DNA of 14,631 nucleotides from a virus (taxonomy: Duplodnaviria; Heunggongvirae; Uroviricota; Caudoviricetes). Position 1 is the stretch's first letter. Each line of letters begins with the position of its first letter. The DNA is taken from the IMG/VR virus record IMGVR_UViG_638341087_000012. One strand, 5' to 3'. This document shows, in pieces, positions 3,001 through 6,000 of the stretch. The position numbers are program-made.

Positions 3001-6000
3001 GCAGTGGCGACTGGCGCACTGACGGTTTCATCGTGGGTGTCGGCTATAAATTCTGATTAGCCAGGTAACACAGTGTTATGACAGCCCGCCGGTTCAGGCG
3101 GGCTTTTTTGTGGGGTGAATATGGCAGTAAAGATTTCAGGTGTACTGAAAGACGGCACAGGAAAACCGGTACAGAACTGCACAATCCAGCTGAAAGCAAA
3201 ACGTAACAGCACCACGGTGGTGGTGAACACGCTGGCCTCAGAAAATCCGGATGAAGCCGGGCGTTACAGCATGGACGTTGAGTACGGTCAGTACAGCGTT
3301 ATTCTGTTGGTGGAAGGGGTCCCGCCGTCACATGCCGGGACCATCACCGTGTATGAAGATTCTCAGCCGGGTACGCTGAATGATTTTCTCGGTGCCATGA
3401 CGGAGGAGGATGCCCGGCCGGAGGCACTGCGCCGTTTTGAACAGATGGTGGAAGAGGTGGCGCGTCACGCTGAGGAGGCGAAGAAGAATGCCGGAGAGGC
3501 GGAGACGTCAGCGAGGAATGCCGGCATATCAGCCAGTCAGGCAGAAGAGAGCGCTGCAAATGCTGACACTTCAGCAGGGGAGGCATCGGAGTCAGCCCGG
3601 CAGGCGGCAGAAAGTGCAGCCTCAGCAAAGCAGTCAGAGGATGCGTCCTCGTCCTCGGCTTCTGCGGCCGCTCAAAAAGCCAGTGAGTCATCACAAAGTG
3701 CAGCAGAAGCTGAATTGTCAAGAAAGACGGCAGAAAGTGCAGCCGGTAATGCAGCCAGGGATGCAACGACCGCAACAGAAAAAGCCCGGGAGTCAGCAGA
3801 AAGCGCACAGTCAGCGGAACAAAGCAGGATAGCGGCGGAAGAGGCCGTAAACCGAATCCCCACCGTGGTGGGACCTCCCGGGCCAAAGGGGGAACAGGGG
3901 CCCGCGGGTCCTCAGGGGCCGAAGGGTGATAAGGGAGAGCGCGGTGACACCGGCCCTGTCGGGGCAACCGGCGAACGGGGACCGGCAGGTGATGCTGTCC
4001 GGCAGGCCCGCAGGGCCGAAAGGTGACAGGGAGAGCGGGGAGAGACCGGTCTGACGGGAAATGCAGGTCCACAGGGTCCAAAGGGAGATACCGGTGCGGC
4101 AGGCCCGGCAGGCCCACAGGGACCGAAAGGAGAAACAGGTGCGGCTGGCCCGGTGGGGGCAACCGGACCTCAGGGACCGAAGGGCGACCCGGGGGAGACA
4201 CAAATCCGTTTTCGTCTGGGGCCGGCGAGCATTATTGAGACAAACAGCAATGGCTGGTTCCCGGATACAGATGGCGCACTCATCACCGGACTGACCTTTC
4301 TTGACCCCAAAGATGCCACACGGGTTCAGGGTTTTTTTCAGCATTTGCAGGTCAGGTTTGGTGACGGGCCGTGGCAGGATGTCAAGGGGCTGGATGAAGT
4401 GGGCAGTGATACAGGCAGAACAGGAGAATGACATGAACGTACTAAAAAAACTTATGCAGCGTCTGTGCGGGTACGGAAAGCATGATGACCGTGAACACGG
4501 GGAGTTACTTACAGCACAACTGCGTCTGGGGCCGGCAGACATCCTGGAGTCAGATGAGAATGGTATTATTCCGGAGCAGGCCAGGGTAATCACGCAGGTG
4601 GTGATACTGGATGCGGATAAAAAGCAGATACAGTGTGTGGTAAGACCGCTGCAAATCCTGCGTGCTGACGGGACGTGGGAAAATATTGGCGGGATGAAGT
4701 AACCCGACAGCTTCACAAAACCGGAGTCCGGCTCCGGTTTTTGTTGTCATGTATGGTGGATGTTTGTTAGGAAGAAGCAGTGATAATATTTATATGGAGA
4801 GTAAACAATGCAACCTGTAGGAGCATCCAATATACTGCCTGGCTCATTATTGAATGAGTCAGCAGAATCACGCAATCAAACAACACCAAGACAGACTGGC
4901 GAAATCCGAATAGGTAATGAGATGGTTGCTATTTCTCATGAACCAAATGATGCCGTTTTTTTCGGTGTTGGTCGTGGGTTTATTATTGGGGATGTCATGT
5001 TTTCTGGTTTGTCTGCCAATAACTTATTAACGGCACATTCTGGCGTAAGAGAAGTACGACACGAGCAAGAAAATGTCTTATTACAGGCAAGAATATCCGA
5101 ATGTGCCTTTAGTGTTAGCCAGGAGAATCTTCAATGCCCGGAAGAGGGAAAACGGTGTCCTGTTACATTAGAAACACCAGAAACAGGGGTTTTTGTTAAA
5201 AATTCAGAAGGTTCTTTGGTTTGTACCTTATTTGATTCGGTTTCTATTTCTCGTTTGGTCCGTGAAGGTGGGGTTCACCCACTGACACGAGAGACAATAA
5301 CTCCATCAATGATTGTAAAGCCAGAAGATTGTATATTTGACAGTTCAAAGGGAAACTTCATTATAAAAGATGGTTAAAATGTTTTACATGAAGCAATATT
5401 GATTTTCGGTAGTTTATATAAAACACCACAGACATTCAAAATGTCAGAGGATGTCAGTGGTGGATGTACCTGGAGCGGAAGTTGTGGAAGTAAGTTATGT
5501 TATATCGCAATAAACCGAATACATCTGTGATGTTACATTGGTCTGAGCTTCAGTGTGTGGTGAATGAAACTCGTAACATTTTCAGAGGTCCTTGATGCGC
5601 CCTACGTCCCTCAACTTGGCATTACATCAGTCATCAACGTCGAGTTCAATGTCAGATGCAGGTATCGAGTCTCTTGTAAAAACATCGAGCGTTCAATGGA
5701 TAAAAAACAATCCGCAACTTCGTTTCCAGGGGACTGATCATAATATATATCAACAGATTGAAGCAGCGCTCGATAAGATTGGCTCTACAGAGACAGGGCG
5801 TGTACTCCTGAATGCTATTGAATCAATATCCCGACTTAAATCAGAAACAGTGGTAATACACCTCAATTCTTCCAGACTAGGAGTTATTGCACATAGAGAT
5901 ATAGATGCTGAGAACCATCGGGGAACTGGTTCCGATTTTCACTGTAATCTGAATGCAGTTGAATATCCCTGTGGGGAGGGGATTAGCGTGGTGGACTTTC

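Follow-up and report, generated by a model that had tools for sequence, protein, structure and literature searches.

Three missing G residues in a collagen-like side tail fibre gene of an Escherichia coli E22 prophage: a probable local artefact of the draft record

Introduction

The side tail fibre gene stf of bacteriophage lambda PaPa is split into orf-401 and orf-314 by a single-base deletion relative to Ur-lambda, a lesion that is heritable, verified and of known phenotype. Prophages of EHEC encode EPclA (E. coli phage collagen-like protein A), which is built of four parts: PfN, then PCoil, which is a trimeric coiled coil, then a collagen helix of 111 residues, and last PfC, the trimerisation knob, at residues 363-426 (Ghosh et al. 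2012, PLoS One 7:e37872, PMC3368898). EPclA has been found by experiment to be a dumbbell-shaped trimer, with PfC as the trimerisation domain (PMC3368898). The prophage regions of STEC are also a place where homopolymer errors and paralogue-mapping errors have been documented (PMC8190617).

Here we describe a fibre gene of the EPclA type in a window of 14,631 nucleotides (the whole stretch of DNA analysed), in which the collagen-like repeat is thrown out of register over a few codons by the loss of three G residues. An earlier note on the same DNA had left three options for this interruption: sequence error in a GC-rich repeat, a genuinely inactivated fibre gene, or a local rearrangement. Comparison with intact orthologues, searches for the allele in genome, phage and metagenome collections, and a survey of similar losses in other assemblies lead us to regard the first as the probable one.

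Results

Source record and prophage context

The window matches contig AAJV02000062.1 (14,631 bp, assembly GCA_000167855.1), with the first 9,056 bases identical and the patch included among them, and it is therefore one whole contig of a public draft. We take this draft to be a Sanger shotgun assembly from TIGR, and the genome paper is said to be that of Rasko et al. 2008. The parent record, AAJV00000000, belongs to E. coli E22, a rabbit EPEC of serotype O103:H2, and comprises 127 contigs with a quality score of 3, that is, unfinished (PMC2974192). No gene is placed between positions 3230 and 4433 by the contig's recorded gene calls, and hence none spans the fibre region.

J, lom, the fibre gene with its parts and the PfC-only gene all lie on the plus strand. 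The contig begins inside the tail tip gene J, whose 3' part occupies 1..2390 (gene calls and comparison), and continues with lom, which encodes an Ail/Lom family outer-membrane protein (2457..3056, exact-protein look-up) and whose protein allele has an exact match on record in AAJV02000062.1 only, a match that pointed to the source record. The fibre gene follows, 3' of J and lom in a lambdoid prophage tail module. An intact PfC-only gene of 89 aa (4433..4702; Pfam and junction sequence) begins 1 nt past the fibre gene stop, and beyond it lie a cargo of T3SS effector genes (NleG, with nleG at 4808-5377, NleD and EspV) and the chromosomal genes ydfJ, ydfI and ydfZ. The window is the right-hand end of a lambdoid prophage whose insertion site is ydfJ.

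The fibre gene and its out-of-register patch

Translation, orthologue annotation and Pfam identify the gene at 3121..4431 as a collagen-like prophage side tail fibre gene of the EPclA type (PfN, a putative PCoil, Col and PfC). It starts at ATG 3121, has its final stop at 4429-4431 and measures 1311 nt in the window, against 1314 nt in intact orthologues. The frame opened by this ATG encodes an N-terminal domain, then a stretch rich in Ala, Ser and Glu, then Gly-X-Y repeats from residue 251. The N-terminal domain is PfN (Prophage tail fibre N-terminal, PF08400; residues 1-133, 3121..3519; Pfam E = 3.9e-68 over profile positions 1-133 of 134), which Pfam finds in the recorded and in the restored product alike. 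In the restored protein the Ala/Ser/Glu-rich segment is visible as a low-complexity stretch at residues 134-250, between PfN and Col.

The Gly-X-Y periodicity is perfect as far as ...GERGPAGDA, breaks at triplet 15 into the residues VRQARRAER followed by an in-frame TGA (4024..4026, codon 302), and is then taken up again by collagen repeats in the same frame. As recorded, the ORF spans 3115..4026 and yields a product of 301 aa from ATG 3121. The PfC domain (Putative prophage tail fibre C-terminus, PF06820; 4204..4395, restored residues 363-426; Pfam E = 2e-36 on the restored protein) lies in the original frame 3' of the TGA and is absent from the 301-aa product. Since PfC is a trimerisation domain, such a truncation would inactivate the fibre protein.

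Three-frame translation shows that the collagen codons of the interval are present off frame, as PAGPQG in +2 and then as PKGD in +1. Alignment of the patch (3997..4031) to the intact orthologues of E2865, UTAK-6 and O103:H2 strain 129 gives exactly three 1-nt gaps and zero substitutions. At the first site GCTGGTCC of the orthologues reads GCTGTCC, a GG having been reduced to the single G at 3997; at the second CAGGGGCC reads CAGGGCC, with GGG left of GGGG at 4013-4015; and at the third ACAGGGGAG reads ACAGGGAG, again with GGG left of GGGG, at 4029-4031. All three events are thus of one type, a single G dropped from a G run, and the three missing G's fall within 33 nt. The first two create the TGA, whose bases are part of GGT GAC in the intact frame, and the net change of -3 means that the frame downstream of the patch is the original one.

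Once the three G's are restored, the protein has 437 aa, and its Gly-X-Y register runs unbroken through 37 triplets, or 111 residues, at positions 251-361 (3871..4200 in the window; regular expression on the restored protein and PF01391). This collagen region is dense in G runs and has a GC content of 71%, against 48% in the window as a whole. The restored protein is 95-96% identical to intact 437-aa orthologues in STEC genomes, which bear the name 'prophage tail fiber N-terminal domain-containing protein', and the restored gene is an ordinary member of the characterised EPclA-type fibre family. The earlier note's reading of the locus is borne out by these results: a collagen-like domain in a tail fibre (PF08400, PF01391 and PF06820), an in-frame TGA inside a patch with the same register on both sides, collagen codons displaced into the other two frames, single-base losses at the three runs that it had named, and an uninterrupted repeat on restoration. 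It had also proposed comparing orthologous fibre genes and had named orthologues sharing the interruption, together with confirming high-quality reads, as evidence against its reading; those we compared are uninterrupted, the opposite outcome.

Occurrence of the triple-deletion allele

Taken at face value, the record would describe a genuine and very recent pseudogene, arising by one local event (such as an error-prone repair tract) or by successive -1 losses after the first had killed the gene. Its product would be a non-functional fragment of 301 aa, lacking the PfC trimerisation domain and most of the collagen helix. The triple G loss does stand in the deposited record AAJV02000062.1, no independent E22 sequence is at odds with it, and prophage fibre genes do decay naturally. 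We nevertheless consider a correct sequence and a real pseudogene unlikely, on the grounds of the distribution and surroundings of the lesion.

A 451-nt query around the site matched 718 of 5,426 complete E. coli genomes, with a median of 9 copies per genome among those, and the best matches were 453-454 nt long. All close orthologues of the fibre gene are 3 nt longer and intact, and the best whole-gene match to the E22 gene is 98.9% identical. We also searched the complete E. coli genomes with a 47-nt query restricted to the patch, where a match needed a 28-mer spanning at least one deletion; three of the 5,426 genomes matched, and none carried all three deletions together. The first deletion (3997) was found in 0 of 693 matching records, representing 3,759 copies, the second (4013-4015) in three records and the third (4029-4031) in two, of about 700, all of them singletons. 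Overall, about 5 of some 4,000 copies vary at the three runs, each as a singleton.

Exact scans with the 51-nt patch returned 0 matches in the representative genomes of GTDB, in IMG/VR and in the JGI metagenomes. The patch allele likewise had no match among 50,697 phage records, and an intact 56-mer was 100% identical in 154 phage records. For the two truncated proteins, of 303 aa (from GTG 3115) and 301 aa (from ATG 3121), exact-protein look-ups were empty. A homology search with the restored 437-aa protein, a low-complexity query, gave only length variants of 70-99% identity among the matches listed, and no identical intact allele was among them. The triple-deletion allele is unique to the E22 record in the data searched.

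This absence from every other genome, phage and metagenome searched, with the first site never deleted in 3,759 copies, argues against a pseudogene. So does the nature of the remaining deletion alleles at these runs, which are all singletons, one Ion Torrent assembly included, and none of which is inherited. The argument has a limit, in that no near-clonal relative of the E22 prophage was found in the collections and there is no second E22 sequence, so a real private mutation would look unique too.

Extent of the damage

In the comparison with UTAK-6, positions 1-6699 of the window have no indels other than the three G's, and against the O103 strain WL1467 we observed 0 indels and 6 mismatches across 4631-14631 (10 kb). 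Two further indels in the UTAK-6 comparison, at 12265 and 14217, are not seen against WL1467 and are therefore private to UTAK-6. The collagen region otherwise matches intact copies, so the gene has no other decay, and with the rest of the contig clean the failure is strictly local. A pseudogene would be the more convincing for further signs of decay, and the fibre gene has none. Nor have the window's other 54 G4, 4 G5 and 1 G6 runs changed relative to close relatives, which speaks against a pseudogene made by a mutator.

Two other sources of the changes were discarded. A mutator background was ruled out, as the window agrees with close relatives at every other G/C run, and diversification of the DGR type was dismissed from the sequence, the changes being G deletions and not adenine-directed substitutions.

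For three random G/C-run sites, weighted by run, to lie within a 33-nt stretch, the chance is P ~1e-5 for the whole contig, P = 0.002 for the fibre gene and P = 0.02 for the collagen region alone. The earlier note's opinion that three independent natural losses within about 32 nt are unlikely is sustained by these values, which require one local cause, technical or biological; those for gene and contig weigh against a pseudogene built up by independent events.

The same contig offers an internal control for the look of a genuine frameshift. Compared with its intact counterpart in strain 129, the nleG7 pseudogene carries indels at 9496 and 9728; UTAK-6 and WL1467, two complete and independent genomes, carry them too, whereas the fibre lesion recurs in none. 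The nleG7 frameshifts are real, and their being common to both strains is a reminder, to the credit of the pseudogene reading, that real pseudogenes exist in such prophages.

G-run losses in other assemblies

We aligned all fetched fibre copies to the intact E2865 gene, and the positions in this section are E2865 gene coordinates. SS17 has three single-G losses at 894, 911 and 957; its shifted stretch is without a stop, the frame staying open through a 21-residue non-collagen insert. 14EC047 has three single-G losses at 795, 894 and 1038, with a stop within the shifted stretch. One single-G loss is present in 2014C-3051 (at 894) and one in Z1323HEC0108 (at 911), the latter otherwise 99.88% identical to an intact locus over 3.3 kb, and BNIZ01000001 has one extra G at 897. 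Each of these changes lies in a G run and is private to one assembly, and the RefSeq copies of SS17, 14EC047, 2014C-3051 and Z1323HEC0108 carry the annotation 'frameshifted'. Ion Torrent is a platform prone to under-call homopolymers. For SS17, the assembly was built from Ion Torrent reads of 165 nt and closed by Sanger walking (PMC4321836).

The alleles of E22, SS17 and 14EC047 share a count of exactly three losses and a net change of -3. A stop falls within the shifted stretch of two of the three, and the pattern is therefore not accounted for by selection to restore the frame. The rough probability of a coincidence of three net -3 alleles is a few percent, reckoned post hoc.

Discussion

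We conclude that the interruption of the E22 fibre gene is probably a local consensus or base-calling artefact of the record and not a feature of the bacterium's DNA. Of the three options raised by the earlier note, an error of sequence in a GC-rich repeat has the most support, given an unfinished draft, a unique allele and intact orthologues. The clean remainder of the contig and the private G-run losses of other assemblies point the same way. We infer a technical cause, and the specific mechanism behind the missing G's may have been as follows. The collagen repeat is 71% GC, rich in G runs and, judging from related strains, presumably multicopy in E22, and the draft consensus at such a repeat could rest on few or poor reads. 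The G runs would then be under-called, GG as G and GGGG as GGG, as could happen near the end of a read or through hairpin compression. For three errors to fall in 33 nt while the remaining 14.6 kb has none, a strongly local failure of quality would be needed, which is plausible. When the intact sequence is folded as a single strand, the prediction places the G's of sites 1 and 2 in the 3' arms of stems, site 1 within a predicted 9-bp hairpin (GGACCGGCA/TGCTGGTCC). The predicted fold, which is only marginally better than shuffles (z = -1.9), weakly suggests a compression artefact, and since this evidence is weak we do not rely on hairpin compression. If the consensus is in error, the true gene would be that of an intact 437-aa EPclA-type trimeric fibre, with a PfN head, a coiled coil, a 111-residue collagen triple helix and a PfC knob.

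The single local cause could instead be biological. It is conceivable, though in our view quite improbable, that the G-run-rich collagen region of multicopy fibre genes is a genuine hotspot for clustered -1 deletions via error-prone repair or conversion tracts; were this so, some lineages would carry real alleles that are multiply frameshifted and restore the frame, and the three net -3 alleles of E22, SS17 and 14EC047, with the open frame of SS17, would fit the picture.

We give very little credence to the proposal that the patch came from local rearrangement, or from recombination or gene conversion between collagen-like fibre paralogues that differ in repeat length. Such exchange would have ample material, as the region is multicopy (a median of 9 places per complete E. 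coli genome having it) and collagen domains differ in length within the family (homology search; PMC3368898). However, alignment to intact copies shows three 1-nt gaps only, with no substitution or junction, and recombination of in-frame paralogues shifts length by multiples of 9 nt and cannot drop single G's. The 16 bases between gaps match perfectly, which excludes the local rearrangement that the earlier note had listed. A functional interruption, in which programmed recoding (ribosomal frameshifting or stop read-through) or G-run phase variation controls the full-length fibre, is the most far-fetched reading, for although the net change of -3 leaves the original frame downstream and two other assemblies are also net -3, the interruption is conserved in no orthologue, all orthologue frames being uninterrupted, recoding would take three separate +1 shifts plus avoidance of the TGA, runs of 1 to 3 G's (2 to 4 when intact) are far below known contingency tracts, and length variants are rare (about 5 of some 4,000 copies, all singletons).

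The interruption itself is of small biological weight, as the family is characterised and the draft, of 127 contigs, is most likely in error here; a real lesion would leave E22 with a dead side tail fibre in one of its several prophages, and no more. Of wider use is the observation that GC-rich multicopy fibre genes of STEC and EPEC prophages gather private homopolymer errors across several sequencing technologies. Unless reads support them, fibre pseudogenes labelled 'frameshifted' in such records ought not to be taken as prophage decay.

Set beside known systems, the E22 gene resembles stf of lambda PaPa in being a lambdoid side tail fibre gene after J and lom, with a PfN-type N-terminus, that has suffered base loss. 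The lambda lesion is one verified deletion, whereas that of E22 consists of three in 33 nt, in an unverified draft and in one record. With the homopolymer and compression consensus errors of STEC assemblies it shares single-base G-run loss, a multicopy paralogous region and confinement to one assembly. It differs from them in its older draft, presumably of the Sanger era, so that its route would not be the flow-cell or nanopore homopolymer mechanism and the candidates are instead compression, a read tail and low coverage. The restored E22 protein has the same architecture and dimensions as EPclA, with PfN at 1-133, a linker to about 250, collagen at 251-361 and PfC at 363-426, boundaries that agree with those published for EPclA (PMC3368898). 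The E22 copy as recorded departs from EPclA in being three G's short and in stopping at codon 302; with the G's restored, no functional difference from EPclA is implied.

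Fibre gene locus

Private single-G changes in G runs were found in the collagen-like region of the side tail fibre gene (window 3121-4431, plus strand) in the public assemblies L004 (strain SS17), L006 (strain 14EC047), L005, L001 and L012. Three assemblies carry several such changes, namely E22 (the source of the window), SS17 and 14EC047, and each has exactly three losses, a coincident net change of -3. In SS17 the frame stays open, and a patch of 21 non-collagen residues results.

The fibre gene is absent from the recorded gene calls of the window contig, which leave 3230-4433 blank. 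These calls do include an antisense ORF of 57 aa (3057-3230, minus strand) at the 5′ end of the fibre gene, which is probably spurious. Two longer minus-strand ORFs of 285 aa (3344-4201) and 301 aa (3811-4716) lie opposite the Ala-rich and collagen-like regions; they are most likely a side effect of composition in GC-rich, repetitive coding DNA rather than genes. Starting 1 nt past the fibre stop codon, a separate 89-aa gene (4433-4702, plus strand) encodes only a second prophage tail fibre C-terminal (PfC) domain; its position after the fibre gene is conserved in all related loci, and in the assembly collection 3,611 blocks index this exact protein. One 486-aa homologue of the fibre (P0092) carries the label 'collagen-like surface-anchored protein SclE [Streptococcus pneumoniae]' and sits on a 3.5-Mb contig; this record is probably mislabelled or contaminated.

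Neighboring genes and contig ends

The window (1-14631) spans contig AAJV02000062.1 of the E. coli E22 draft from end to end. Its first base falls within the multicopy gene J, which suggests that the contig is bounded by repeats.

The ydfI gene (12384-13844, plus strand) is intact in E22, where codon 56 (at 12549) is GAA, encoding Glu, whereas WL1467 has TAA; UTAK-6 also differs from the window at base 12549, and the gene is annotated with an 'internal stop' in O103:H2 strain 129. The espV effector gene (6462-7676, plus strand) is uninterrupted in the window; it is disrupted by IS2 in UTAK-6, with the insertion near 6694-6699, and by an IS3-family element in WL1467, near 7422-7428.

Compared with the intact nleG7 gene of O103:H2 strain 129, the nleG7 pseudogene of the window (9380-10320, minus strand) carries two frameshifts, at 9496 and 9728, one of which is A7 versus A6. 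Both are real, inherited lesions, since UTAK-6 and WL1467 share them, and they provide a useful contrast to the patch of three single-G losses in the E22 fibre gene.
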